Origin: an uncultured archaeon
Lineage (GTDB): Archaea; Altiarchaeota; Altiarchaeia; JAFGQM01
NCBI GenBank assembly: GCA_964619365.1
Contig: CAZUDQ010000001.1
Coordinates: forward strand, 1-18,828
Length of the DNA stretch: 18,828 nt
Direction: 5' to 3'
Made by a program: the position numbers and the translations under genes. Positions 1-18,054 of the stretch are shown piece by piece (positions within the stretch are counted from its first letter, which is position 1; each line of letters opens with the position of its first letter). The notes under the pieces are model-generated. The model did no database searches, was not told where the DNA came from, and saw nothing but the letters and a program-made list of their open reading frames with translations.

Positions 1-3000
1 TTAGAGTCCAGGTTGTGCTGCCCGTTTCTTTGATAATGCTCGGATTTGCGCTAAAGCTTATTGTGAAGTTTGTTGCGTTTGTTACAGGTGAGTACCCACC
101 ACAATCTGATTCGTTTACTAGGTCTTGCCAGGCAAGAGGTTGGTAGCCCACACCATCGCAGAAATTATCCCATGGGGGGAAGTACCACTCTGCGATTGGT
201 TCGTGAGAGATATAAAAGAAGTAGCGTTCTTCAGTTTTTTCTGTGCAGTTCTCGTTTCCTCCGGGATAACATGAACTTGCATTGTCGCCGGTGTGATTTA
301 ACCAGTATGCGTTCACGATTTTTGAGCTTGAGTCTAAGGTGCCCAGGAAGCCACCCACGCTTGAATTTCCTGTGACGTTTCCTGTCGAATATGAGTTGTT
401 TATAATTGAACTTGTGGATAGTTCTCCGGCGAGGCCACCTACGTAGTCATCAGTTCCATTGACGTTTCCTGTGGCATAAGTGCTATTGACTGTTGATCCT
501 TCGGTTATCTGTCCGACAAGGCCTCCTGTGTAAAGGTTTCCTGTTATGTTTCCTGTGGCGTAAGAATCTGAGATATTTGAACCCAGTTCTAAGGAACCTG
601 CGAGGCCTCCTGTGTATCGATACCCAGTGACGTTTCCGGCGGCAAACGATGTTAAAATTGTTGAGTTAATATTCACCCATCCCGCGAGACCGCCTGTGTT
701 GTTCTCACCTGTGATGTTTGCTGTGGAATAAGAGTTGTTAACTATTGCATTAGTGTACAAATAACCGGTGAGGCCTCCAACATATAAAGTTCCGCTGACA
801 TTTCCTGAGGAATATGAATTGTTGATTATTGAATTTTGGGATATTCCACCAGTCAAACCGCCCACATAAGTGGTTCCCGCAACATTTGCTGTAGAATATG
901 AATTTATGATTGTCGAATTGGTGGACGCCCCGCCGGCGAGGCCGCCGATTCCACGGGTTCCTGTAACATTTCCTGTTGAATAAGAATTGTTGATTGTTGC
1001 ATTAATATATAACCCGCCGGCGAGGCCGCCAGTGTTAGCTGTTCCTGTTATGTTTCCGATAGAGTACGAGTTGTTGATTATTGAATACTCTCTTAGGTAT
1101 CCGGCGAGGCCACCTGTGTAATAGTTGGTGCCCATGACAGTTCCTGCCAAATATGAATCAAGTATTGAGGAATTTGTAATCAAGTATCCAGCGAGGCCAC
1201 CTGTATACTGGTGTCCCGTAACAGTTCCGGTTAACGATGAGTTTATGATTGTAGCTTGATCTAAGTATCCTGAGAGGCCGCCCGTGTAATGGTAATCCCC
1301 TGAGACAGTTCCGGTTAACGATGAGTTTATGATTGTAGCTTGATCTAAGTATCCTGAGAGGCCGCCTGTATACTGGTATCCTGATACTGATCCCGAGGCA
1401 GAGGAGTTTGATATTGTTGAGGCTGGGTACATATATCCAGTGATACCTCCTGTATTGTAACCTAACCCAGTAGTATTTCCTCTAGAAAAAGAATCTGATA
1501 CCAACCCTCCAAGAGATCCTACTAATCCACCTACATTATTGTGATTGGAAGTGCCAGTTCCGGTTACAGTTGCTAGTGAAGTGGAATTTAAGATTATTCC
1601 ACCACAATAGCCTGCAAAAGCCCCAACATGATTCTCTGCGGTAATATCTCCGGATATATAAACATTTGAAATCGTTGAACTTGAATAAATATTCCCTGCA
1701 AGCGCGCCAACATACTGAATATTGTTACCTCCAGTCACATCAACGGAGGTTAGACTCAAATCACTTATATTTGAATTGATAATCCTTTCAAAAAGACCAA
1801 CATTCCCATTATATATGTTACTATTTATGTACAAACCACTTATTGTATGATTGGTGCCATCAAAACTTCCAGTAAATGGTTGAAACAGATACTCTACACT
1901 ACCTATTGGCAACCATCCGTCCCCTGTATTGTATGGGGCGATATCAAGATCTATGTCTGCTGTTAATGTGTAGTTGCAACCCAGACAAAGCCTTGAAGCA
2001 TTAAGGTCGGCAGCACCAGTAATCTGACAAGGATCTTCAATCGTTCCCGAACCAGCCATATTGTTTGGGCATCCCATACTCAAAACCTGTAATGTTGGAT
2101 AATAACTACCTTCATTTGAATCATTCCAAATATCTGTAAAGTCCCAGGAGTTCATAGGACTGTGAGAATAGTCAAAGAAATACGATCCAGAGGATACTGC
2201 AGTACATCCCGTATTCTCATAATCGCCATCTAGAACATAACAAAATTTTGCATCATCTCCTGTATGATTTACCCAGTGGGCATTTTGGACTGAACCGCTG
2301 TTTAAATTTACTGCAATTCCGCGCGCACCCGCAGAAGAAATAGAGCCAGTCGCATAAGAAGAAGATATTTGTACATAATTTTGCATATTTCCTGTTAGGC
2401 CACCTGCACCAGAGGTTCCCGTGATGCTTCCTGTTGCGTATGACCTAGATATTAACCCATAAATGTAGGCACTCCCCGCAAGACCACCTATATTCGAGGT
2501 TCCTGTGACGCTTCCTGTTGCGTATGAGTCATTAACCGTTGAGAATGTATACAGATATCCAACTAATCCGCCAACTTGTGATTCTCCTGTGACGCTTCCT
2601 GTTGCGTATGATTTTAGGACAGTTGCTCCAATACTAGCACTGGGATCTGTGCCACCCACAAGTCCACCGACTTCAATAGTTCCTATCACATTACCAGTTG
2701 CATGTGAATTTGATATCGTACCTTCATAGAATCCTACAAGACCGCCTACTCTACTTGAAGTTCCTGTAACGCTTCCTGTTGCATGTGAATTTGAGATTTG
2801 GCCAGAGCTTTGTCCTGAGAGACCCCCTACACCACTAGTTCCCTGAATATTTCCGGTCGCGTAGGAATTAAAAATAGTTGAACCTTGTGAATATCCTTCA
2901 AGGCCTCCGGCAAAGCTTGTATCTGATGTAACTGATCCCGTAGAATACGAATTTGTAATTACGCCCCCTGTGGAATGTCCTACAAGGCCTCCTACTTTAT

Positions 3001-3829
3001 AATGACCCTCAACATTGGCTGTAGTGTAAGAATCCAAAATTAATGAACCATCATAGGGTTCTCCCACAAGACCTCCCGTGATATCATAACCTGTTACGCT
3101 ACCAGTTACATATGTATTTGAGATTGCTGATTCATCTGCATATCCTGTTATTCCGCCAGTATAATACTCTGTTCCGGTTATACTCCCAGCCACATAGCAG
3201 TCTATAATTGTTGACCTGGTATGCATAGCTCCTGCAATGCCCCCAGTATAGCGTGCCCCGGTAATATCTGCTGAGATTATTCCTATCCCAGTAACATCCG
3301 CATTATCTAGTCCTCCAAAAAGACCGATTGCACTTTCACTGGGTCTATTTATATAAAGATTACTTATAGTGTGACCAAGTCCGTCAAAACTTCCTACAAA
3401 CGGTTTTGAGAATGAGGGGTAATATCTGGAATAATTGCCCATAGGTTTCCACCCCTCTCCTGTCGTGTAACTGGCATCACAAGCCGAGAAATCTATGTCG
3501 TTTTGTAGTTCATATTCCCAATTGAGGTGATTTCTTATGTTATTCAGGTCGTCACACGAGCATATCGGATGCGGACTTATGCTGTCGTTCCAGCAGTCGA
3601 CTGTGGAACTTCCCTGAGGCTGTGATATTGGTTCGGTTTCGTTTCCGTCCTCGCCTCCAGTCTCATCTGATTCTGGAGGAGTTATAAAGTATTCATAGAT
3701 GTCATCATCGCCGATTGCAAGGCCTTGTGGTGATTTTAGGTTCTCGCCTGAAGGATTCAGTAGACTCATTGAGAGTGCTAACGCCGCAAGGATTATGATG
3801 AGGGTGAATAATACGGCTTTTTGTTGCAT
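1..3829 (-). CDS. Large secreted/surface GLUG-repeat protein (>1276 aa, C-terminus beyond the left edge of the window)
   Basis: Manual minus-strand translation from ATG at 3829: MQQKAVLFTLIIILAALALSMSLL (signal/TM), an acidic linker, then PHPICSCDDLNNIRNHLNWEYELQNDIDFS..GEGWKPMG..FVGSFDGLGHTISNLYINR and ~11 GG(L/I)xG repeats of 27-28 aa. A second module (MAGSGTIEDPCQITGAADLN..FTGSFDGTNHTISGLYIN) has ~17 repeats. The frame was spot-checked at 3829, ~1984 and the left edge and is the same. No stop was seen in the window, which would explain its absence from the ORF track. Confidence 0.9.
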   Translation of the reverse strand, partial: MQQKAVLFTLIIILAALALSMSLLNPSGENLKSPQGLAIGDDDIYEYFITPPESDETGGEDGNETEPISQPQGSSTVDCWNDSISPHPICSCDDLNNIRNHLNWEYELQNDIDFSACDASYTTGEGWKPMGNYSRYYPSFSKPFVGSFDGLGHTISNLYINRPSESAIGLFGGLDNADVTGIGIISADITGARYTGGIAGAMHTRSTIIDCYVAGSITGTEYYTGGITGYADESAISNTYVTGSVTGYDITGGLVGEPYDGSLILDSYTTANVEGHYKVGGLVGHSTGGVITNSYSTGSVTSDTSFAGGLEGYSQGSTIFNSYATGNIQGTSGVGGLSGQSSGQISNSHATGSVTGTSSRVGGLVGFYEGTISNSHATGNVIGTIEVGGLVGGTDPSASIGATVLKSYATGSVTGESQVGGLVGYLYTFSTVNDSYATGSVTGTSNIGGLAGSAYIYGLISRSYATGSITGTSGAGGLTGNMQNYVQISSSYATGSISSAGARGIAVNLNSGSVQNAHWVNHTGDDAKFCYVLDGDYENTGCTAVSSGSYFFDYSHSPMNSWDFTDIWNDSNEGSYYPTLQVLSMGCPNNMAGSGTIEDPCQITGAADLNASRLCLGCNYTLTADIDLDIAPYNTGDGWLPIGSVEYLFQPFTGSFDGTNHTISGLYINSNIYNGNVGLFERIINSNISDLSLTSVDVTGGNNIQYVGALAGNIYSSSTISNVYISGDITAENHVGAFAGYCGGIILNSTSLATVTGTGTSNHNNVGGLVGSLGGLVSDSFSRGNTTGLGYNTGGITGYMYPASTISNSSASGSVSGYQYTGGLSGYLDQATIINSSLTGTVSGDYHYTGGLSGYLDQATIINSSLTGTVTGHQYTGGLAGYLITNSSILDSYLAGTVMGTNYYTGGLAGYLREYSIINNSYSIGNITGTANTGGLAGGLYINATINNSYSTGNVTGTRGIGGLAGGASTNSTIINSYSTANVAGTTYVGGLTGGISQNSIINNSYSSGNVSGTLYVGGLTGYLYTNAIVNNSYSTANITGENNTGGLAGWVNINSTILTSFAAGNVTGYRYTGGLAGSLELGSNISDSYATGNITGNLYTGGLVGQITEGSTVNSTYATGNVNGTDDYVGGLAGELSTSSIINNSYSTGNVTGNSSVGGFLGTLDSSSKIVNAYWLNHTGDNASSCYPGGNENCTEKTEERYFFYISHEPIAEWYFPPWDNFCDGVGYQPLAWQDLVNESDCGGYSPVTNATNFTISFSANPSIIKETGSTTWTL
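1221..1366. repeat. Exact 62-bp direct repeat with 84-bp period within the GLUG gene
   Basis: acagttccggttaacgatgagtttatgattgtagcttgatctaagtatcctgagaggccgcc occurs at 1221-1282 and 1305-1366. The 84-bp offset equals one 28-aa repeat. Confidence 0.95.
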
Positions 3830-8511: not shown

Positions 8512-8772
8512 CTAATATGCATTATCATGATGCTCATATTCTAATAACTTTACGACCCTTCTTGTTTCGTCAATAGAATAAATTAGAACAAACCTCCCAA
8601 TGTGCACACGACGCCTTCCAACTAATGGTTTTTTTAGTGGCTTCCCCACATATGGGTTTGTGATTATTTCGGAGATTTTCTTATTTATCTGCTCTAGCTG
8701 TTTTCTATCTTTTTTTAGAAGTCTAGTAAAGACCTTGTCAAGTTGCTCAGAGACTTCAAGGTCGTATGTCAT
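8512..8772 (-). CDS. Type II toxin, RelE/ParE superfamily mRNA interferase
   Basis: 86 aa, basic; GKPLKKPLVGRRRVHIGRFVLIYSID..HHDNAY; ATGA overlap with the upstream antitoxin. Confidence 0.88.
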   Translation of the reverse strand: MTYDLEVSEQLDKVFTRLLKKDRKQLEQINKKISEIITNPYVGKPLKKPLVGRRRVHIGRFVLIYSIDETRRVVKLLEYEHHDNAY

Positions 8773-10477: not shown

Positions 10478-10514
10478 AGTTATTTTTATACCAGTAGCTT
10501 CAAAAACACAACAG

Positions 10515-10582
10515 GTGGGAATTATTTCCCACATCGGAAATTCCCGATGAGAATGGTGCCATTAAAGATGGCACGGGGGAAT
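10515..10582 (+). promoter_or_regulatory. Three adjacent inverted repeats in the leader of the regulator-his operon
   Basis: GTGGGAA-ttat-TTCCCAC (10515-10532), CATCGG-aaattc-CCGATG (10532-10549) and GTGCCAT-taaag-ATGGCAC (10556-10574). A TATA-like TTTTTATA lies at ~10483-10490. Confidence 0.65.
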
Positions 10583-10593
10583 CTAAACTAAAA

Positions 10594-10974
10594 ATGCAGG
10601 AAACATCAAAAATCGACGGCAAGGGAAGACTCCTTATCCCCTCAGGCGTCAGGCGCGCTCTTGGCCTTGAAGAAGGCGTGGAAGTAGTTATCGCAGTTGA
10701 AGGAAGGCAAGCTGTGATTTCGCCTGTTTTTGATAAAAAGCTCTGCGAGATGAAAGTTATGATTGGCGACTCGCCCGGTTCCTTAGCGCGTGTTGCAGAC
10801 TTCCTTTCTAAAGAAGGATTTGATATCATAATGAGTGAGTCCCGTGCCCTTGAGCGTGAAAAACGAGCTGAGTGGGACATACTTGGCAAGTACGACGGAG
10901 ATTTTAATGCGCTCGCGCGAAAATTAAAGGCTAATGTTTTTGTATCAGACGTCATAGTAAAAGAATCAACATGA
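10594..10974 (+). CDS. AbrB/MraZ-type DNA-binding domain fused to ACT domain (putative amino-acid-sensing regulator)
   Basis: N-terminal KIDGKGRLLIPSGVRRALGL (swapped-hairpin signature) and C-terminal DSPGSLARVADFLSKEGFDI (ACT signature). ATGA overlap with hisS. Confidence 0.85.
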   Translation: MQETSKIDGKGRLLIPSGVRRALGLEEGVEVVIAVEGRQAVISPVFDKKLCEMKVMIGDSPGSLARVADFLSKEGFDIIMSESRALEREKRAEWDILGKYDGDFNALARKLKANVFVSDVIVKEST

Positions 10975-12230
10975 AACTAGAAACGCCTCCAGGGGTAAGA
11001 GATTTTCTCCCGGAAGAAATGGCTAAGCGCCAGGAAGTAATCGACAGAATCAGGCGCTCCTTTGAACTTTACGGATTCTCTCCGGCTGAAACGCCAGCTT
11101 TTGAATACGCCGAGCTTCTTGAAAACAAGTACGGGGAGGATGAGAAACTCATCTATAAATTTGAAGATTTGGGGGGGAGAAAACTTGCCCTGCGCTATGA
11201 CCTGACTGTACCTCTTGTAAGGCTTGCTGGCATGAACCAGCTTCCTTCACCATTTAAACGTTATTGCATCGCGCGTGTCTGGCGCTTTGACCGCCCGCAG
11301 AAAGGGCGTTACCGCGAGTTCTGGCAGTGTGATGTGGATATCTTAGGTGTAAAGGGGCCAGAGGCCGATGCTGAAGTTTTGTCATGCGCCATTGACGCCC
11401 TTGACTCTCTTGGACTTAAGGATTACACACTAAGAATTAATGACCGGCGCCTTCTTGACCAGGTCTTTGGAGCTATGGCAAAAGAAGCGGGCTGCGGTCT
11501 TGAGTCTGTTCTTCGCGCGCTAGATAAACTTAATAAACAGGGTGCAAAGGAAGTAAAAAGGGAGCTTGAGACAAGCGGATTTTCAAACGATGCAAGTGAT
11601 AGGATTCTTAAGCTTGCCGAAACACAAGGGCTTGACGAGCTAAAGGGAACTTGCCCTGAAGTGAAAGGTGCGACATCTGATATTGAAGAAATCCTTAGAA
11701 TACTTAAATCGCGCGGCAAAGATGAGTGTGTAAAATTCGACTTTTCCTTAGCGCGCGGTCTTGATTATTACACCGGACCCATATTTGAAGTATCACTTGG
11801 GAACTTTGGTTCGATTGCAGGCGGAGGAAGATATGACAATCTAATCGAAGAGATTGCAGGGAAGAACTGTCCTGCTGTTGGAATCAGTCTGGGAATTGAA
11901 CGTATTATAGAAGTTATGCGCGAAGCTGGTATGCTTGAGGATCTCGGAACTGCCTCAGAAATATATGTACTTTGTGCTGATGAAAAATCCAAAAAAGACG
12001 CTGATAGCATACTTTCAAGGATACGCTCAGGAGGTATTTCGGGAGAAGGCGACCTTGTGGGGCGCAATTTCTCAGGACAGATGAAATATGCAAATAGAAT
12101 CGGGGCAAGAAAAGTTGTAATTGTCGGGCAAAAAGATCTTTCTCTTGGCAAAGTCACAATAAAGGATATGAAAGAAGGGAGTCAGGAGCTAGTTCTCCTT
12201 AAAGACTTAATTTCAAAACTTAAGAAATGA
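10971..12230 (+). CDS. hisS: Histidine--tRNA ligase
   Basis: PGVRDFLP, LRYDLT, motif 2 VWRFDRPQKGRYREFWQCDVD, LARGLDYYTG, GGGRYD, GIERI and a C-terminal anticodon-binding domain. Confidence 0.96.
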   Translation: MKLETPPGVRDFLPEEMAKRQEVIDRIRRSFELYGFSPAETPAFEYAELLENKYGEDEKLIYKFEDLGGRKLALRYDLTVPLVRLAGMNQLPSPFKRYCIARVWRFDRPQKGRYREFWQCDVDILGVKGPEADAEVLSCAIDALDSLGLKDYTLRINDRRLLDQVFGAMAKEAGCGLESVLRALDKLNKQGAKEVKRELETSGFSNDASDRILKLAETQGLDELKGTCPEVKGATSDIEEILRILKSRGKDECVKFDFSLARGLDYYTGPIFEVSLGNFGSIAGGGRYDNLIEEIAGKNCPAVGISLGIERIIEVMREAGMLEDLGTASEIYVLCADEKSKKDADSILSRIRSGGISGEGDLVGRNFSGQMKYANRIGARKVVIVGQKDLSLGKVTIKDMKEGSQELVLLKDLISKLKK

Positions 12231-13075
12231 CAACAAGAATCGCAATACCAAACAAGGGGCGCATGAAAGAACCCTGCATCGAGCTTCTAAAAAGCGCGGG
12301 GATAAAACCAAAAGTTTATGATGAAAAGGCTCTTTTTGCAAAGACGACAAGGGATGACGTAGAGGTTCTTTTTGTCCGTGTTGAAGATATCCCGCAGTTT
12401 GTAGAAGATGATGTTGCCGACCTTGGTATGGTGGGTCAGGACATAATCGCTGAAAAAGGCGCTAAAGTAAAAGAGATTACAGGCCTTGGTTTTGGAAATT
12501 GCTCTCTTGTCCTTGCAGGAAAAAAGAACGGCTCGGATTCAGTTTCAAAAATACCAAACGGCGCGCGAGTTGCGACAAAGTTTGTCAAAAGCGCAAAGAA
12601 ATACTTCGGTGAAAAGGGCAAGGAAGTCGAGATAATCGAGCTTTCAGGCGCTGTTGAAATCGCACCAGTCATCGGGATTGCTGATTACATTGTAGACCTC
12701 AGTTCAAGCGGTTCGACCTTAAAGTCACACGGTCTTGTGGTGATGGATACCATTCTTGAAAGCGAGTTTGCCTTGATTTCAAAACCGGGAGCAAAAAGTG
12801 AGGCAATTGACGACCTTCTTTTAGGCATTGAAAGCGTGACCTCGGCTGACAAGAAAAAATACCTCATGGTAAACCTACCTGAAGGAAAGCTTTCGGAGCT
12901 TGAATCAAGTGAGAAAGGTGCTCTTTCCCCGACAGTAACAAAGCTTGACAAAGAAGGGTGGATTTCGGTGCAAATGGTAGTTGAAGAAAAAAAGATATTT
13001 AGTTTTATTAAGAGCCTAAAGAAGCTTGGCGGGCGAGATATCTTGGTTCTTCCAATTGAAAGACTTGTAAAATGA
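12227..13075 (+). CDS. hisG: ATP phosphoribosyltransferase, long form
   Basis: IAIPNKGRM, VRVEDIP, ADLGMVGQD, VATKF, LSGAVEIAP, IVDLSSSGSTL and a C-terminal regulatory domain (SPTVTKL..LKKLGGRDILVLPIE). Confidence 0.96.
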   Translation: MTTRIAIPNKGRMKEPCIELLKSAGIKPKVYDEKALFAKTTRDDVEVLFVRVEDIPQFVEDDVADLGMVGQDIIAEKGAKVKEITGLGFGNCSLVLAGKKNGSDSVSKIPNGARVATKFVKSAKKYFGEKGKEVEIIELSGAVEIAPVIGIADYIVDLSSSGSTLKSHGLVVMDTILESEFALISKPGAKSEAIDDLLLGIESVTSADKKKYLMVNLPEGKLSELESSEKGALSPTVTKLDKEGWISVQMVVEEKKIFSFIKSLKKLGGRDILVLPIERLVK

Positions 13076-14367
13076 GCGAGCTTCTACTGCCAATACTTGC
13101 ACCTGAAGAGGTATCTGACGAATTTATGAATCGCGCTGAAACTGATGTTTCAAATGCGGGCGCAGCTGCCACAAAAGTCATTGAAGATGTCAGGAAAAGA
13201 GGCGATGTTGCAGTTCTTGAGTACACTGAGAAGTTTGACGGACAGAAACTTGATTCTCTTTTGGTGTCTAGGGGGGAAATAGAAAATGCGTACAGGGAAA
13301 TAGACCCAAAGCTCTTATCGGCAATAAAGCTTGCATATAAGAATATCAAAAAATTCCATGAAACATGCATGCCTAAGGAACTCTCAATTGAGATTTCACC
13401 CGGAGTCGAAGCAAGGCAAAGAGTAATCCCTTTGGCGCGCGCAGGGCTTTATATCCCAGGTGGAAAAGCAATATATCCTTCTGTCATGCTTATGCTCGCA
13501 ACTCCGGCGCAGGTTGCAGGGGTGGATGAAATTATTGCGTGTTCCCCCCCACAAAGTGGCGGGAAGCTTGACATGGCAACAATGGTCGCAGCAGATATTT
13601 GCGGCGTTACAAAACTCTTTAAAGTCGGAGGCGTGCAGTCTATTGCCGCAATGGCTTATGGGACCGAATCAATCCCAAAATGCGATTCTATTGCAGGGCC
13701 GGGCGGACCTTACGTTTCAGCGGCCCAAAGGCTCGTTAAGGGCGATGTTCGAATGGACTTCCCGGCAGGGCCTAGTGAGGGAATGGTTATTGCAGACAAG
13801 TCGGCAACGCCAGAATTTGTCGCAGCAGACGTCTTAAGCGAGGCTGAACACGGACCAGATTCAGCAGCCGTCCTTGTCACAGACTCAAAGGAACTGACAG
13901 AAAAAGTGCAACGGATATTTTCTGATATGGCAAAAAAGCTTCCTGAAAAAAAGCAGGAATATATCCAAGAGAATATCGCAAAATATTCTGGAATCGTCCT
14001 TTGCAAAGATATGGACGAAGCAATCAATTTTACAAATGACTATGCTGTTGAGCACTTGGTAGTTGACACTACAGATCCTGAAAAGACGCTTTTGCGCCTG
14101 AGGACTGCTGGCACGTATTGCCTTGGTGAATATTCACCGATAAGTGCAGGGAACTTTGCCGTCGGACCAAATGCGATTCTTCCAACAGGGGGCTACGGGC
14201 GCATGTTTTCAGGGGTTTCAGTAGACTCATTCCTCAAAAAACCAACAGTAGAAAAGTTATCTAAGGAAGGTCTTAGGTCCCTTAGGGCGGCAATAACAAC
14301 GCTTTCAGAGTTTGAAGGCTTCCCAGCGCACACAAATTCGGTCGAAGTAAGGTTTAAGGAAAAGTAA
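13072..14367 (+). CDS. hisD: Histidinol dehydrogenase family protein (non-canonical active-site motifs)
   Basis: GLYIPGG, PAQVAGV, GGVQSIAAMAYGTE, PAGPSE, AEH, VEHL and EGFPAH are present, but SEAEH and GNFAVGPNAILPT deviate from the canonical motifs. Confidence 0.9.
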   Translation: MSELLLPILAPEEVSDEFMNRAETDVSNAGAAATKVIEDVRKRGDVAVLEYTEKFDGQKLDSLLVSRGEIENAYREIDPKLLSAIKLAYKNIKKFHETCMPKELSIEISPGVEARQRVIPLARAGLYIPGGKAIYPSVMLMLATPAQVAGVDEIIACSPPQSGGKLDMATMVAADICGVTKLFKVGGVQSIAAMAYGTESIPKCDSIAGPGGPYVSAAQRLVKGDVRMDFPAGPSEGMVIADKSATPEFVAADVLSEAEHGPDSAAVLVTDSKELTEKVQRIFSDMAKKLPEKKQEYIQENIAKYSGIVLCKDMDEAINFTNDYAVEHLVVDTTDPEKTLLRLRTAGTYCLGEYSPISAGNFAVGPNAILPTGGYGRMFSGVSVDSFLKKPTVEKLSKEGLRSLRAAITTLSEFEGFPAHTNSVEVRFKEK

Positions 14368-14421
14368 GATTTTCTTACTTTTCTAAATTATGCTAAAAAC
14401 AAGTAAGAAAATCTTACTTTT
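14359..14421. repeat. Pair of palindromes AAGTAAGA-N3-TCTTACTT that together form a 21-bp inverted repeat
   Basis: GAAAAGTAAGA-ttt-TCTTACTTTTC (14359-14383) and AAGTAAGA-aaa-TCTTACTT (14401-14419). 14360-14380 is the exact reverse complement of 14401-14421. Confidence 0.9.
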
Positions 14422-14449
14422 TGCCAAAAATAACGCTAAATAAGAGAAA

Positions 14450-15082
14450 ATGGTATCAGCAGACATAAGAAAGGCAAGTTCTAAGGAGGTTATCGCAGAA
14501 AGAGCCACTCGCGAGTCAAAGATTTATTGTAGAATAGATTGCAACGCGCGCCGCGAGACAAAGATAGACACCGGCTTGCAGTTTCTAAACCACATGATTG
14601 AGACTATTGCCTGGCGAATGTGTGTTAATATAGAGTTTAAGTTTGAGGCGACAAACTTCAAGCTGACCCACGTCATCGCAGAAGACTCGGGAATCGTGCT
14701 TGGCTCGGCTCTCCGCGCACTTTATGAAGCAAGGATTGAGACTAAAGACGGCGCAAGAGGAAGCTCAAGAAGTATAATTGATGAAGGCTGCGCAACCGCG
14801 GCAGTCTCAATCGAAGGGCGACCAAAGCTCTTTTTAGAAGGAAACGCGGCAACAGGCTTAGAGCTGGTCGAAGACACTAAGGCGTGTGACCTTGATGACT
14901 TCCTTGACGGTCTGGCTCTCGGACTTGGCGCGACAATCAGAATAGTTGTAGAATCCGGGAAAGACCCGCACCACAGTTGGGAGGCAATCTTTCGCGCTCT
15001 TGGCGAAGCACTAGGACAGGCATTTGAGCCTTGTCCCTTCCGTTCTGGAGCGTGCGCTGGTGTCAAAGGAACCTTAAAATAA
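14450..15082 (+). CDS. hisB: Imidazoleglycerol-phosphate dehydratase family protein (divergent)
   Basis: RATRES, IDTGLQFLNHMI, THVIAEDSGIVLGSAL, IDE, GRP, DPHHSWEAIFRALGEAL and a C-terminal KGTL. Confidence 0.85.
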   Translation: MVSADIRKASSKEVIAERATRESKIYCRIDCNARRETKIDTGLQFLNHMIETIAWRMCVNIEFKFEATNFKLTHVIAEDSGIVLGSALRALYEARIETKDGARGSSRSIIDEGCATAAVSIEGRPKLFLEGNAATGLELVEDTKACDLDDFLDGLALGLGATIRIVVESGKDPHHSWEAIFRALGEALGQAFEPCPFRSGACAGVKGTLK

Positions 15083-15096
15083 AGTAATTATCAGAC

Positions 15097-15990
15097 ATGA
15101 AAGCAATACTTTTTGATCTTGACGGAGTCATAACTTCAGAAAGAATCTATTGGAACACTGCAGGCATAATAATCGCAGAAAAAAAGGGCGCAATTCTGCC
15201 TGAAAACTGCGAAGAACTAGCTAAGCTTGCAGGCAAGTCTCTACCTGATGATGAAATCCGCAGGTTTAAGGAGCTTGGTATAAATTCAAATAAAGATATT
15301 GCCTACTGTGGTCTTATGGCATACAAGACTGGGAAGAGTAATTCTGAACTTCTAATTGGAATGGAAAATGAAGGCCTTAAAGGCCTTGCCTACCTAAAAT
15401 ATCTTGATAAGATTGACCCTGGAACAACGCACCTGAGGCATGGTGAAGTATTTGATGACATCGACAATACATTTAGGGCTTGCTATCAAAAACTCTCGGG
15501 GATTGAAAAACCTCCAGTTTCCTTAGACGCGATAAGGGAAACTCTTGAAAAGCTCAAATCAAATGGATGGAAACTCGGGATTGTCACTGGAAGAAACCTG
15601 CCTGAAAGTAAGGCGCCCTTAGAGAAATGGGGAATATTTGATTACTTTGACCCATGCATGATAATAACTGATGACGAAGTCGAAGAAGAGAGTAAAAAAC
15701 GGGGAGAACACGTCGGAAAACCGCATGCTTGGCCAATACTCCGCGCAATTTTTGGCTGCGAAACATTTGTCTCGGACGGCGAAGCAATAAAACGCCTTAA
15801 GTCCAAAGGCGACTTTGTCTTTGTGGGGGACTCGGTATCTGATGTCCTTGCGGCAAAAGCAGCCGGGATGCCTGTAATATGTGTCAATACGGGAATTGCA
15901 AGCAAAGAGTCCCTTATAAGAGCTGGGGCAGATATTATAGTAAAGGATGTAACTTTTGTTCCGGGTGCGCTTAAGGAACTTGGATTTTAA
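15097..15990 (+). CDS. HAD-superfamily phosphatase (candidate histidinol-phosphate phosphatase)
   Basis: Motif I LFDLDGVI, motif II IVTGR, motif III KPH and motif IV VGDSVSD. It starts 14 nt after hisB. The substrate is inferred from context only. Confidence 0.85.
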   Translation: MKAILFDLDGVITSERIYWNTAGIIIAEKKGAILPENCEELAKLAGKSLPDDEIRRFKELGINSNKDIAYCGLMAYKTGKSNSELLIGMENEGLKGLAYLKYLDKIDPGTTHLRHGEVFDDIDNTFRACYQKLSGIEKPPVSLDAIRETLEKLKSNGWKLGIVTGRNLPESKAPLEKWGIFDYFDPCMIITDDEVEEESKKRGEHVGKPHAWPILRAIFGCETFVSDGEAIKRLKSKGDFVFVGDSVSDVLAAKAAGMPVICVNTGIASKESLIRAGADIIVKDVTFVPGALKELGF

Positions 15991-15991
15991 A

Positions 15992-16933
15992 TTAAAAATC
16001 GATTTCTTTTCCGATTCCTTCCTCTTTTGCCTTATCATACACAAGGCGCGCTATTGCAAGATCCTGGAGAGCTGTTCCAACCGACTTAAAAATCGTGACA
16101 TCTGACTCGCTTTTTCTGCCAGGTGCTTTTCCTGATAAGACTTCTTGAATCTCTGTTATGTCCCCTACTTTACAGGTCTTTAAATCTCCGCTCTTAAAAC
16201 AATCCGGGGTATCAATTACAACAATTGATGAAGTCACAAGGTCTGAGCCTATCTCACTGGTGTCTGGAGTGTGTGCGCCAATTGATGTTATGTGCGTTCC
16301 GGGCTTTATCCACTCGCTTTTTATAACAGGAGTACTTGCTCCAGTTGCAGTAACAAGTATATCACATGATGCCGCATCCTTTGGAGTTCCCTTGCTTATT
16401 AGGATTCCTAAAAATGACATATCAGAGATAAATGCGTCCATGCGCTCTTCGTTTAAGTCTGAAATGACTGTTTTTTTAATCTTTCTTACCTGGGCAAGTC
16501 CTTCAAGCTGCGTTCTTGCCTGAACGCCACAACCGATTATACCCACAGTCTCTGCATCTTTTCTAGAAAGTGCGTCTGCTGCAAGTGCGCAAAGGGCGCC
16601 CGTCCTGATTGCCGTAAGCTGCGTTGCCTCGATTATTGCAATTACATTCCCAGTATCTACATCTGCAAGGTTTATTGTCGCAATTATAGTTGGGAGACCA
16701 CGCTTCTTGTTCTCAGGATAGTCACATACGACCTTACACGCAACGCCCATTCCTTCGGCATAAACGGGCATGAATCCCCACCATTTCCATTCGGATGTCG
16801 GAAGCATGAACTGGTCTTTTGGCGGATAGACTGTTTTTCCCTGCGCGTGTTTGATAAACACTTTGTGGCATGCTTTAATCACTTCACCCATCGGTGCAAG
16901 TGACTTTGCTTCATCGCCAGTTATAAAAATCAT
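15992..16933 (-). CDS. Ornithine cyclodeaminase / mu-crystallin / archaeal alanine dehydrogenase family NAD(P)H oxidoreductase
   Basis: FMP, KVV, LTAIRTGA, IIGCGVQARTQ, GTHITSIGA, GRKSESDVTIFKSVG and QDLA. Confidence 0.92.
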   Translation of the reverse strand: MIFITGDEAKSLAPMGEVIKACHKVFIKHAQGKTVYPPKDQFMLPTSEWKWWGFMPVYAEGMGVACKVVCDYPENKKRGLPTIIATINLADVDTGNVIAIIEATQLTAIRTGALCALAADALSRKDAETVGIIGCGVQARTQLEGLAQVRKIKKTVISDLNEERMDAFISDMSFLGILISKGTPKDAASCDILVTATGASTPVIKSEWIKPGTHITSIGAHTPDTSEIGSDLVTSSIVVIDTPDCFKSGDLKTCKVGDITEIQEVLSGKAPGRKSESDVTIFKSVGTALQDLAIARLVYDKAKEEGIGKEIDF

Positions 16934-16953
16934 TGTTTTATTCCTTTAAAAAA

Positions 16954-18054
16954 TTATTCTGCCAAGGACTTAAGAGTCGATATTATCTCGTCGTTTATCT
17001 CCCGCTTTCCTGTTGCAAAACTTATGTACTTGTTCTCAAGCTCGGTAAATGTGGATGCCACATTGCGTACGAGTATTCCATGGTCATCGCGAAGTATTGC
17101 CTGTACTTTGTCGCCAGGGAGGCCTGAAGCTGAAATATCTATAAATCCGAATATGCCGCCGGACTTCCAGACTTTATATCCAACGCTAGAAAGTTCCTTG
17201 CGGGTCCTTTCTTTTTCTGAATTTATCTCGTTCCAGATGGCCTGGTACTCTTTAATTGAATCTAATGCGGCAAGTGCGCCTGCCGTGCCAAAGCGATTAT
17301 ACTCAAAGCCGCTCATAATTTTATTGTATATGGCTGTGTTCTCTGGATTTGAGATTATGTATGACATCTTGGCTCCAGCCAGACCAAAACCTTTTGAAAA
17401 GCTCCTTAGAACGTAAAGATTGGGGTAATTGTTGACTTCATCTGCAACCGTTTCCTGACAATACTCGTAATAACATTCGTCGACGAGAACAACGCATGGC
17501 GCGTTTTCTACAACCTTCATTATATCTTCTTTTGGCGCGACAACGCCTGTCGGATTATTTGGCGAGCAAAGGAATATCATGCGTGTGTCCTTATCACATG
17601 CTTCAAGAATCCTGTCCGGGTTCATGTCGAATTCCGGCATGTCAAGAGCTACTTTTTTTGTAACGCCGCCAGCTCGCCTGTTGCCGTAGAAAAGCTCTGG
17701 GTAAGTCGGAGACATCATAATGATGTTCTCGCCCTTGTTGACAAATATCTTTGGAAGGCGGTTTAAGGCCTGGTCAAGCGACTCGTCAAGTGCTATGCAG
17801 TCTGGTGTTACACCAACATACTCTGCTGTCTTTTCAATCAGCTTGCCTGTTAGGCCGTCGCCATAATAAACATATTTTGAAGCAGTTACTGCCTCGTTTT
17901 TTATCGCTTCAACAACCTTTTTTGGAAGGTCATACTGAAACTCGTTTAGATTAAGGACTGCTTTGAGTGGTTTTTCCAGTTTTTTAGCATACTGCTTTGG
18001 CTCTGACTCGCTAAGAGTTGAAACCATAAAATCTTTGGCATAAACTTTAGACAT
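16954..18054 (-). CDS. hisC: HisC-like PLP-dependent aminotransferase (class I/II, divergent)
   Basis: LNLNE, FLCSPNNPTG, VDECYYE, LRSFSKGFGLAG (PLP lysine) and GILVR; adjacent to his genes. Confidence 0.8.
   Translation of the reverse strand: MSKVYAKDFMVSTLSESEPKQYAKKLEKPLKAVLNLNEFQYDLPKKVVEAIKNEAVTASKYVYYGDGLTGKLIEKTAEYVGVTPDCIALDESLDQALNRLPKIFVNKGENIIMMSPTYPELFYGNRRAGGVTKKVALDMPEFDMNPDRILEACDKDTRMIFLCSPNNPTGVVAPKEDIMKVVENAPCVVLVDECYYEYCQETVADEVNNYPNLYVLRSFSKGFGLAGAKMSYIISNPENTAIYNKIMSGFEYNRFGTAGALAALDSIKEYQAIWNEINSEKERTRKELSSVGYKVWKSGGIFGFIDISASGLPGDKVQAILRDDHGILVRNVASTFTELENKYISFATGKREINDEIISTLKSLAE

Follow-up and report, generated by a model that had tools for sequence, protein, structure and literature searches.

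Do the histidine-type genes of this cluster serve ordinary histidine biosynthesis, or has their chemistry been turned to something else? The cluster lies in a window of 18,828 nt (the whole stretch of DNA analysed) from an uncultured archaeon. A preliminary description had reported changes at conserved positions in all three late enzymes, and proposed either a co-diverged variant route to histidine or the same chemistry on a different substrate, with an OCD-family reductase as an extra step. The changes themselves are borne out by alignments and by comparisons with consensus sequences. We consider it very likely that this is the organism's histidine biosynthesis cluster, built with displaced variants of imidazoleglycerol-phosphate dehydratase (IGPD) and HisD in an otherwise standard pathway. 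What was observed directly is which genes are present and in how many copies genome-wide, the residue states, the co-occurrence of the variants, and their settings in operons and fusions; from there the reading would have the enzymes act on their standard substrates. The variant forms of the two metal enzymes are little known.

Table 1. Features of the cluster and the evidence on which each assignment is based.
Feature	Position	Strand	Evidence
Candidate promoter and operator region	10484-10532	+	TATA-like element, then palindrome
Regulator (AbrB/SpoVT-ACT, small)	10594-10974	+	ORF call and domain scores
HisS (histidyl-tRNA synthetase)	10971-12230	+	TIGR00442, 402 bits (cut-off 286.75)
HisG (ATP phosphoribosyltransferase, step 1)	12227-13075	+	TIGR00070, 194.6 bits (cut-off 75.75)
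HisD, 'type A' variant (last two steps)	13072-14367	+	TIGR00069, 490.3 bits (cut-off 243.8)
Spacer, 82 nt, with hairpin	14368-14449	+	Sequence and fold
IGPD (imidazoleglycerol-phosphate dehydratase), variant clade	14450-15082	+	Pfam, 88.1 bits (cut-off 27)
HAD-IA phosphatase	15097-15990	+	Catalytic motifs, position, predicted structure
OCD/mu-crystallin family NAD(P) enzyme	15992-16933	-	PF02423, 228.9 bits
HisC-family aminotransferase, divergent	16954-18054	-	TIGR01141, 200.5 bits (under cut-off 276.55)

The layout first described, in which regulator, hisS, hisG, hisD, hisB and HAD genes converge on the hisC-like and OCD genes of the opposite strand, is confirmed by the ORF coordinates, by ATGA overlaps at 10971, 12227 and 13072 (the joints between regulator, HisS, HisG and HisD), and by the single base (15991) between the stop codons of the HAD and OCD genes. 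Since the gene arrangement recurs in relatives, it is far more than chance. HisS and HisG were taken to be canonical members of their families, and both score above the family cut-offs (Table 1). No second HisS copy was found in the genome by tblastn. HisG, also present in a single copy, is of the long form (C-terminal regulatory domain TIGR03455, 83.5 bits, above cut-off), so that HisS is not needed in the role of HisZ.

The regulator matches PF04014 (28.4 bits, above cut-off) and TIGR01439 (30.7 bits), and its ACT domain scores 20.3 bits, under the cut-off. Homologues head his clusters in three relatives (L016, L018 and L020) at 65-69% identity, and in L024, L050 and L077 at 33-38%. A TATA-like element, TTTTATACC, is found upstream of the regulator gene at 10484-10492, with the palindrome GTGGGA-N6-TCCCAC on its 3' side at 10515-10532. 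This palindrome occurs once in the 1.21-Mb genome, even with one mismatch allowed, and it also precedes the regulator gene in the three closer relatives (L016, L018 (=L169) and L020 (=L170)). It is a putative operator, through which the AbrB-ACT regulator, a candidate histidine-sensing repressor, may control the cluster. The spacer between the HisD and IGPD genes contains a 16-bp hairpin with a T-run on its 3' side (-15.3 kcal/mol, z-score -3.4, 2 of 200 shuffles equally good), a possible internal terminator or attenuator; the spacer measures just 3-5 nt in L016 and L018.

The absence of hisE, hisI, hisA, hisH and hisF was remarked on from the start. This is true of the window itself, but the pathway is not incomplete, as hisF (276 bits), hisA (219 bits), hisI, hisE and hisH are encoded on contigs other than the window's (C7, C10, C6 and C9). 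Scattered his genes are common in archaea. The genome has no IGPD or HisD besides those of the window, a statement that covers its assembled part (85% complete). None of the seven other genomes of the window's family (f1) has a canonical IGPD copy either, and hisA and hisF are both present in seven of the eight f1 genomes, the exception being 63% complete. The preliminary description had itself set an ordinary split pathway against its proposal, to be recognised on the computational side by middle genes elsewhere in the genome and by single copies of hisB, hisC and hisD; this is what the genome contains.

The window's IGPD falls under the cut-offs of all 13 NCBIfam HisB models (best 101.6 versus 189 bits). 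Aligned with the M. tuberculosis enzyme, it has HV for HH, Asp for the His of 'RHVF', and SIEGR for DLSGR. The eight Mn ligands described for Medicago HISN5 are H115, H141, H142, E145, H213, H237, H238 and E241 (PMC10978614). Six of these positions are kept in the window's enzyme (H48, H74, E78, H174, H175 and E178), and two are lost by alignment and motif spacing: H142 is V75 (H74-V75 in place of HH), and H213 is D150 (the His of 'EHFF'). The variant thus lacks one ligand of each Mn site, as the sites are defined in Medicago HISN5 (PMC10978614), and for this reason its activity is not to be taken for granted.

The active-site changes are not private to the window's genome; the variant pair of IGPD and HisD is found in many uncultured microbes of many phyla. 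At all 80 retained loci that encode a relative of the window's IGPD the variant motif is present, and none has His at the V75 position. Across the clade, V, T, L, M, P or I takes the place of the second His in the first HH motif, and the 'EHFF' His is not conserved. A long branch splits the variant sequences from 34 canonical ones (FastTree, support 99), and the nearest clade outside the window's family is from Micrarchaeota (L026 and L037) and includes a his operon that holds the variant IGPD. It is barely credible that the variant IGPD is an inactive relic in a histidine auxotroph, a reading suggested by the loss of two of the eight Mn ligands and by the small genome (1.2 Mb). Against it, variant IGPDs of archaea and bacteria have kept 38-80% identity, with 27 invariant and 20 nearly invariant positions, six of the eight Mn-ligand sites among them; operons and fusions retain the gene, and the other pathway genes are all intact. 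We infer that the window's IGPD is a functional enzyme of a deep-branching variant clade with a re-arranged metal site, presumably active on the standard substrate.

In an alignment with the E. coli and Medicago enzymes, the window's HisD has LSEAEH for LSQAEH, AGNFAVG for AGDYASG and PNAILPT for TNHVLPT, and the triplet E257/N361/A368 replaces Q259/D360/H367 of E. coli. The zinc ligands described for HisD are Gln259, His262, Asp360 and His419 (Medicago Q299, H302, D401 and H460; PMC5585171). His262 and His419 are kept, with Glu in place of Gln259 and Asn in place of Asp360; the catalytic Glu326/His327 and the equivalent of Glu414 are also present. This HisD would likewise be a functional enzyme of a deep-branching variant clade, acting on the standard substrate.

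The preliminary description proposed a check on whether the variant forms occur together, and for IGPD and HisD they do so at 68 of 68 loci where a HisD lies nearby. The HisD near a variant IGPD has Glu at the Gln259 position at 48 loci and Arg or Lys at 20, and Gln at none; the second of these types keeps D360 and H367. The variant hisD and hisB genes are adjacent at 41 of the 80 loci and fused as a single ORF at 10 (also in P0347 and P0348), and at 24 the pair lies inside a his operon with hisH, hisA and hisF, often with hisI and hisE too. HAD-IGPD fusions were seen in 8 of the 16 long representatives tested, along with one HisC-HAD-IGPD fusion. In Actinomycetota, the HisD adjoining a canonical IGPD is Q/D/H in five of five genomes, and two of these carry the variant pair as well, which provides a within-genome control. 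The window's own class comprises ten genomes with variant IGPD only, 18 with canonical only and none with both; HisD is E/N/A in all ten genomes of f1 and its sister family f3, and Q/D/H in 17 of 17 genomes from other families. The 81 Nitrososphaeria genomes, a class that includes cultured ammonia oxidisers, divide into 67 with canonical IGPD only, seven with variant only, none with both and seven with neither. The variant is the sole IGPD in eight more genomes (G001, G004, G005 and G136-G140); of these, G001, G004 and G005 were confirmed to have hisA and hisF. No cultured histidine prototroph with the variant pair alone was identified. The two variants were probably passed on together, adjacent or fused, as a hisD-hisB module that displaced the canonical pair in some lineages.

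One sub-clade of the pair, found in Thermoleophilia and Chloroflexia, is an extra copy in catabolic-looking clusters. In two Thermoleophilia-type genomes the variant pair exists alongside a canonical his operon and sits with genes for an ADH, an SDR and an aminotransferase and with hutH and hutU; at least this sub-clade may therefore act on something else. It is very improbable that the window's whole late set (IGPD, HisC-like protein, HAD and HisD) also acts on a non-histidine substrate, although such extra copies exist, conserved positions are changed in all three late enzymes, and the HisD family includes members with other substrates (sulfopropanediol and DHPS dehydrogenases, 234-258 bits against the window's HisD). 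The genome has every other his gene but no further IGPD or HisD, the overlaps point to co-transcription with hisG and hisS, the variant pair occurs inside his operons, in two archaeal classes no genome combines the variant with the canonical form, and HisD reaches 321 bits to plant HisD and 490 bits to TIGR00069. The earlier suggestion of a different substrate, with the OCD enzyme as an extra step, finds no support in this window, given the middle genes in the genome, the sole hisB and hisD, the pair's presence in his operons, and the canonical HisC of f3 (see below). The suggestion of a co-diverged variant route holds to a limited extent: IGPD and HisD co-occur as variants across many phyla, whereas the rest of the pathway is standard.

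The HisC-like protein has TIGR01141 as its best family, with a score under a cut-off that also leaves 4 of 14 control genomes under it. It keeps the PLP lysine motif SFSK. The GNGSDE motif of HisC is replaced by LDESLDQ (LDEALDQ in the family consensus), and in the C-terminal 'R..vG' motif, where at least 90% of 92 ordinary HisC proteins have Arg, at least 90% of 25 close family members have Ser. Three other aminotransferases in the window's genome match AspAT-like or DapL models, which leaves this as its only HisC-family protein. The textbook histidine pathway has no place for an OCD-family gene. The best solved relatives of the OCD protein are delta1-pyrroline-2-carboxylate (Pyr2C) reductase (6t3e, 199.5 bits) and archaeal alanine dehydrogenase (1omo, 187 bits), and it falls under the cut-offs of the NCBIfam equivalog models for alanine dehydrogenase, Pyr2C/Pip2C reductase, OCD and others.

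The HisC-like and OCD genes could form a separate two-enzyme module next to the his cluster, with another aminotransferase handling histidinol phosphate. A candidate route would be alpha-transamination of ornithine or lysine and then cyclic imine reduction, yielding proline or pipecolate; the plant ALD1/SARD4 route likewise passes from transamination to cyclic imine reduction. The relation to Pyr2C reductase agrees with this, as does the loss of the conserved substrate-binding Arg. The two genes are adjacent and co-directional in all eight f1 genomes, a pairing specific to this family and, in the window, flipped as a unit relative to L016, L018 and L020, and proC was found in none of the eight. 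However, proC is likewise absent in f2, f3, f4 and f6, families that for the most part have no OCD, so this absence does not single out f1. Moreover, the HisC-like gene is the only HisC-family gene in eight of eight f1 genomes, where the pathway is otherwise kept; it stays linked to his genes, immediately 3' of HAD in L016 and L020 and of HisD in G108; and it shares 30-35% identity with the canonical HisC of f3 but only 25-26% with that family's second HisC-like copy. We regard a separate module as rather unlikely, and the HisC-like protein as the probable histidinol-phosphate aminotransferase, with some reserve.

Alternatively, and much like the extra step of the preliminary description, the late pathway of f1 may be truly remodelled, with the OCD dehydrogenase regenerating the amino donor or carrying out a reductive amination with the altered HisC-like protein. 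A divergent HisC-like protein, a lost canonical HisC and an adjacent OCD gene do coincide in all eight f1 genomes, and f3, with the same IGPD and HisD variants, has a canonical HisC (331-337 bits) and OCD in none of four genomes. We nevertheless hold this to be quite doubtful: it concerns a single family and probably a single evolutionary event, no OCD homologue was found within 10 kb of the variant IGPD at 77 other loci (tblastn, E <=1e-8, >=50% coverage), and no precedent for an OCD-family enzyme in histidine synthesis was found in the literature searched. Because f3 pairs variant IGPD and HisD with a canonical HisC, the intermediates are probably standard. A bolder reading joins several of these elements: the hisD-hisB module as an alternative solution, with another metal requirement or physically coupled HisD and IGPD, transamination re-invented in f1 by the Arg-less HisC-like protein and OCD, and the Thermoleophilia/Chloroflexia sister sub-clade feeding an imidazole compound into the Hut pathway. 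It is improbable as a whole; if true, the module and the HisC-like/OCD transamination would make a genuinely different late route to histidine.

The catalytic motifs of the HAD protein (D7/D9, K208, D245 and D249) are invariant among 32 homologues, and its predicted structure (pLDDT 92.4) places seven helices in a single large cap between residues 16 and 136. The gene lies 3' of the IGPD gene in L016, L017, L018 and L020, and is partial at a contig end in L019. Other his operons, too, have a HAD gene beside the variant IGPD (L030 and L025, 75-78 bits; L021, 51.5 bits); the matches in L055, L060 and L088 are weak (23-25 bits), and the HAD domains fused to variant IGPDs have only the HAD core in common with the window's protein, whose nearest solved structure is the uncharacterised protein 1qyi. 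A PHP-type phosphatase was not found in the genome (best 21 bits versus a cut-off of 90.2). We regard the HAD protein as a candidate for the histidinol-phosphate phosphatase, more likely than not.

In the favoured reading of a histidine biosynthesis cluster, HisG would carry out step 1, the products of hisE, I, A, H and F from elsewhere in the genome would supply the middle steps, and IGPD, the HisC-family aminotransferase, the HAD phosphatase and HisD would complete the late ones. IGPD and HisD would work with re-arranged metal sites, the former without two Mn ligands and the latter with Glu/Asn for Gln/Asp, as a module that would replace the canonical pair in some lineages.

Several known systems offer a comparison. 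A HAD hydrolase of N. maritimus, encoded between hisB and hisC, is described as a demonstrated histidinol-phosphate phosphatase (PMC10804674). The window's HAD resembles this enzyme, nmHisN (Nmar_1556), and toHisN in its catalytic motifs, its position between hisB and hisC, and its single large all-helical cap, which has seven helices in the model; that paper describes nine for nmHisN and seven for toHisN. The fingerprint given there for nmHisN is Y24-D25-K56-E64 (PMC10804674), and the window's protein has Y18 followed by W19-N20. In the bifunctional HisB of E. coli (phosphatase-IGPD) and other his fusions, IGPD is linked to a phosphatase, and in the variant lineages also to HisD, which places all of them in the same functional neighbourhood; unlike in E. 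coli, IGPD and HAD are separate genes in the window. With canonical IGPD (HisB/HISN5; PF00475), the window's enzyme shares the fold family, six of eight Mn-ligand positions, the SGR arginine and the hisB position in the operon, and it differs in Val for Medicago His142, Asp for His213, SxEGR for DxSGR, and T/R for the Q/H of DHMLxQLxxH. The window's HisD agrees with the E. coli and Medicago enzymes in a TIGR00069 score far above cut-off and in the catalytic Glu-His, His262, Glu414 and His419, but has an amide/carboxylate swap at two zinc ligands and Ala for His367. The sulfopropanediol and (R)-DHPS dehydrogenases (PDB 8v35 and 8wwe) belong to the same family, yet true HisD enzymes are closer to the window's (313-321 bits), which, unlike these dehydrogenases, is co-transcribed with hisG and is the sole HisD of its genome.

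An ORF map and profile scans bore out the gene layout proposed in the preliminary description. The genes for the regulator, HisS, HisG and HisD, which are the first four of the cluster, are joined by ATGA overlaps, and the stop codons of the HAD hydrolase and OCD genes lie 1 base apart. The other window genes include the housekeeping genes for enolase, an OMP-decarboxylase-family protein and a beta-CASP RNase. A giant GLUG-repeat protein (>1276 aa) runs past the window end, a ParE-family toxin ORF is present, and a search of the window for tRNA genes found none.

Features of the window, with coordinates, strand and basis of assignment
Feature	Coordinates	Strand	Basis or remark
GLUG-repeat giant protein	2-3829	-	
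ParE-family toxin ORF	8512-8772	-	
TATA-like box plus palindrome	10484-10532		
Palindrome GTGGGA-N6-TCCCAC	10515-10532		
AbrB/SpoVT-ACT regulator	10594-10974	+	ORF map, profile scans
HisS	10971-12230	+	TIGR00442, 402 bits, above cut-off
HisG, long form	12227-13075	+	ORF map, profile scans
HisD	13072-14367	+	TIGR00069, 490 bits
hisD-IGPD spacer	14368-14449		82 nt
IGPD homologue	14450-15082	+	ORF map, profile scans
HAD hydrolase	15097-15990	+	ORF map, profile scans
OCD/mu-crystallin protein	16933-15992	-	ORF map, profile scans
HisC-family aminotransferase	18054-16954	-	ORF map, profile scans; OCD gene next

The suggestion that the pathway is truncated, with its middle genes absent, is refuted by the genome of origin (1.21 Mb, 17 contigs, 85% complete). 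hisF and hisA are found on contigs C7 and C10 (276 and 219 bits), hisI on C7, hisE on C6 and hisH on C9. IGPD and HisD occur in exactly one copy each, both within the window, and HisS, HisG, the window's type of HAD and OCD are likewise single. The divergent HisC-like protein alone represents the HisC family, and the remaining three class-I aminotransferases have their best matches in AspAT-like or LL-diaminopimelate aminotransferase models; the proposed search for second hisB, hisD or hisC copies thus returned none. With the middle genes located elsewhere and IGPD, HisD and HisC-like each in single copy, the computational half of the findings that the preliminary description had associated with an ordinary split pathway is therefore in place. 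We consider it likely that the cluster is, in function, such an ordinary split histidine pathway. Its distinctive parts are a variant hisD-hisB module, uncharacterised and inherited as a unit, and a HisC-like/OCD pair specific to the family.

The changes reported at conserved positions of the late enzymes are real and clade-wide, as seen in the IGPD and HisD alignments and in the consensus of the HisC-like clade. IGPD serves as a target for herbicides and antimicrobials, and its eight Mn ligands are regarded as invariant. Aligned to the M. tuberculosis enzyme, the window's IGPD retains H48, H74, E78, H174, H175 and E178, replaces the second His of the first HH pair by V75 and the 'RHVF/EHFF' His by D150, and has SxEGR for DxSGR and T and R for the Q and H of DHMLxQLxxH. 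The Mn ligands described for Medicago HISN5 include His142 and His213 (PMC10978614); judging from the M. tuberculosis alignment and identical motif spacing, these would be the positions taken by V75 and D150. Clade-specific residues that may stand in for the two lost His ligands are E51, E122 and D147. The variant states are common to ~100 homologues and to all 80 checked loci, which are those kept from 377 stretches that encode a relative in a scan of species genomes. A long branch (support 99) separates variant from canonical forms in a FastTree phylogeny that combines 81 variant sequences with 34 canonical ones, the latter mostly from Actinomycetota and including two genomes flagged unpublished (G023 and G053), on which nothing rests. 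At E ≤1e-30, the variant-family profile picked up 98 out of 5,479 representative clusters of IGPD-like proteins, and the clade is therefore a small minority of IGPD diversity. Proteins of ~390-450 aa with two tandem variant-type IGPD-like domains were also seen (G108:C60:11251-12372; P0349, P0351, P0370, P0379 and P0388); in G108, a 0.8 Mb genome of the window's family, this is the only IGPD-like match.

Relative to the E. coli and Medicago enzymes, the window's HisD has Glu for Gln259, Asn for Asp360 and Ala for His367, and retains the equivalents of His262, Glu326/His327, Glu414 and His419. In Medicago HDH, zinc is described as bound by Gln299, His302, Asp401 and His460, and His408 as contacting the substrate through its carbonyl alone (PMC5585171). 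Given Gln to Glu and Asp to Asn, the zinc site of the window's HisD therefore has one carboxylate and one amide with their places exchanged. The proposed co-occurrence of variant IGPD and HisD holds throughout: HisD is present in 68 of the 80 loci, and position 259 is altered in all 68 (E in 48, R or K in 20, Q in none). Type A HisD, with E at 259, has N or C at 360 and mostly A at 367; type B, with R or K, retains D360 and H367. Ten loci have the two genes as a single fused ORF, HisD lies directly upstream in 41 and elsewhere within 10 kb in 17, and it was not found in 12 loci, many of them short contigs. As a control, HisD adjoining canonical IGPD was Q/D/H in 5/5 Actinomycetota genomes, two of which (G002 and G003) also carry variant IGPD with type A HisD elsewhere and so provide a control inside a single genome. 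Type B forms one clade (support 100) in a HisD tree made with FastTree only, and type A and canonical HisD each form nearly one clade. A second HisD-family gene with Q259 and Cys at the Asp360 position lies away from the variant pair in a 7.3 Mb Vecturithrix genome (G001:C1:3405299-3406528, L126). No description of the variant IGPD/HisD class or of a HisD-IGPD fusion was found in the main texts of the literature consulted, including PMC11237513, PMC10978614, PMC7284861 and PMC1963479.

Distribution of variant and canonical IGPD among genomes; related genomes are not independent, and the counts therefore describe a pattern and are no statistic
Group	Genomes	Variant only	Canonical only	Both	None
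Window's class	31	10 (f1, f3; 89-113 bits)	18 (f2, f4, f5, f6; 187-206 bits)	0	2; a further genome has two 28-bit matches
Nitrososphaeria	81	7	67	0	7
Actinomycetota (four genomes flagged unpublished)	101	0	95	1	5

Among families f1-f6 of the window's class, all 10 genomes of the window's own family (f1) and its sister family (f3) have an E/N/A HisD, and 17/17 of the other families have Q/D/H. The variant is the sole IGPD in eight more genomes reached via the loci, among them two 7.3 Mb bacteria and a Thermoprotei, a Bathyarchaeia, a Thermoplasmatales and a Peregrinibacteria genome; three of the eight were checked for hisA and hisF, and all three have both. An argument from ammonia-oxidising archaea as cultured prototrophs with variant IGPD does not stand, 67 of the 81 Nitrososphaeria being canonical.

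The his-gene context of the variant IGPD points to histidine biosynthesis. In 24 of the 80 loci it shares one operon with hisH, hisA and hisF, often together with hisG, hisI and hisE, in Peribacteria, Micrarchaeia, Iainarchaeum, Thermoplasmata, Thermoprotei, Woesearchaeota and Thermodesulfobacteriota. Type A and type B HisD alike are found in such operons, one of which belongs to the nearest clade outside the window's family (Micrarchaeota L026/L037). In the sister family, a canonical HisC (331-337 bits) occurs alongside variant IGPD and HisD, a combination that speaks for the usual phosphorylated intermediates. Gene fusions agree. HisD and variant IGPD form a single ORF of ~650 aa in L044, L045, L046, L048, L062, L075, L079, L085, L094 and L095, in Marsarchaeota, Thermoprotei, KSB3/Moduliflexota, Dormibacterota and a Micrarchaeia-labelled genome. 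Sixteen long IGPD representatives comprised two HisD-IGPD, eight HAD plus IGPD-like, five double IGPD-like and one HisC-HAD-IGPD protein, the IGPD of the last scoring in the canonical range.

The idea of a different substrate, raised in the preliminary description, does not hold for the window and may hold for the variant IGPDs of Thermoleophilia, Solirubrobacterales and Chloroflexia, which form one sub-clade (support 91). In both genomes checked, the variant is an extra copy besides a canonical his operon. Extra IGPDs with type A HisD (L049:7000-16000, L064:7000-15000, L063:4500-11000, L080:3500-13500) neighbour genes for Zn-ADH, SDR, aminotransferase, FMN-dependent dehydrogenase, ABC transporters and an IclR regulator, to which L049 adds hutH (histidine ammonia-lyase) and hutU (urocanase). 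These clusters may be catabolic, leading from an imidazole compound via histidine to urocanate, and offer a possible, testable candidate.

The HisC-like clade is confined to the window's family, with 45-63% identity within it and the next relatives at 33%. All eight f1 genomes have this form only (157-215 bits), and canonical HisC was found in none of them. The clade consensus has LDEALDQ for GNGSDE, and Ser for a C-terminal Arg that ≥90% of the 92 ordinary HisC sequences retain; the clade retains the PLP-phosphate Arg, which is Lys in the window. We favour the HisC-like protein as the aminotransferase of the pathway because it is the sole candidate, is his-linked and is closest to canonical HisC; orthology with the second HisC copy of the sister family was ruled out, since it is nearer to that family's canonical HisC. 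An OCD-family gene directly follows in 8/8 f1 genomes, and the pair may instead be a separate transaminase/imine-reductase module. The best solved relatives of OCD are Pyr2C reductase and archaeal alanine dehydrogenase, and OCD was found in 0/13 genomes of f2, f3, f5 and f6; 3 of 10 f4 genomes carry another, higher-scoring type. Three relatives have the pair after HAD and co-directional with it; in the window the pair is inverted. With HisC-like as the aminotransferase of the pathway, OCD may alternatively take a real part in a remodelled late step. Absence of proC as a mark of the OCD-bearing family was ruled out, proC being found in f5 only.

In the window's family and in Micrarchaeia/Thermoplasmata loci L024, L050 and L077, a homologue of the AbrB-ACT regulator stands first in the his cluster; these small proteins may represent an archaeal his regulator not yet described. 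Ahead of the regulator gene, a TATA-like box is followed ~22 nt further on by the palindrome. Three relatives conserve this palindrome, and the 1.21 Mb genome has a single occurrence of it; regulator and site together are a testable candidate. In the window, ~55 additional bases with two further palindromes precede the regulator ATG. The hisD-IGPD spacer, just 3-5 nt in relatives, contains a hairpin of 16 bp and, after it, a T-run (-15.3 kcal/mol, z-score -3.4).

The window's variant IGPD falls below every NCBIfam HisB cut-off, and six of eight named homologue matches (Peregrinibacteria, Diapherotrites, Woesearchaeota) are called 'hypothetical protein' at NCBI. Reconstructions can therefore miss hisB, and DPANN, CPR, Altiarchaeota and other genomes can be mis-scored as hisB-less histidine auxotrophs. 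A widespread natural IGPD clade without two Mn ligands, always together with a rebuilt HisD zinc site, would be a useful test case for metal-site function and for how uncultured lineages, most of them from the subsurface, use metals.

On balance, the window's HAD hydrolase is likely to be the histidinol-phosphate phosphatase. Its motifs are intact, with D7, D9, K208, D245 and D249 invariant in 32 homologues; it belongs to a family-specific clade (47-54% identity) encoded after the IGPD gene in relatives, and no PHP-type phosphatase was found in the genome. The enzyme is often missing in archaea, and this HAD is a testable candidate. Smaller HADs adjoin variant IGPD in other his operons (L030 and L025, 75-78 bits; L021, 51.5 bits), with weak matches (23-25 bits) beside it in L055, L060 and L088. 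At Nitrososphaerales L083, a thaumarchaeal HolPase arrangement was rejected, the ORF after IGPD encoding a TackOD1-domain protein and not a HAD. An AlphaFold model (pLDDT 92.4) has a single large seven-helix insertion between motif I and the core, and its Foldseek matches were confined to generic C1-cap HAD enzymes and 1qyi, an uncharacterised protein. Kinateder et al. (PMC10804674) describe an N. maritimus HAD hydrolase, whose gene lies between hisB and hisC, as a proven histidinol-phosphate phosphatase with one large all-helical cap. The window's HAD matches the paper's description in gene position and architecture. Eight N-terminal HAD fusions to variant-kind IGPD-like domains and the HisC-HAD-IGPD triple fusion (P0373, P0375, P0383, P0392, P0404, P0405, P0409, P0412 and P0433) are independent parallels to the phosphatase-IGPD fusion of E. 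coli.
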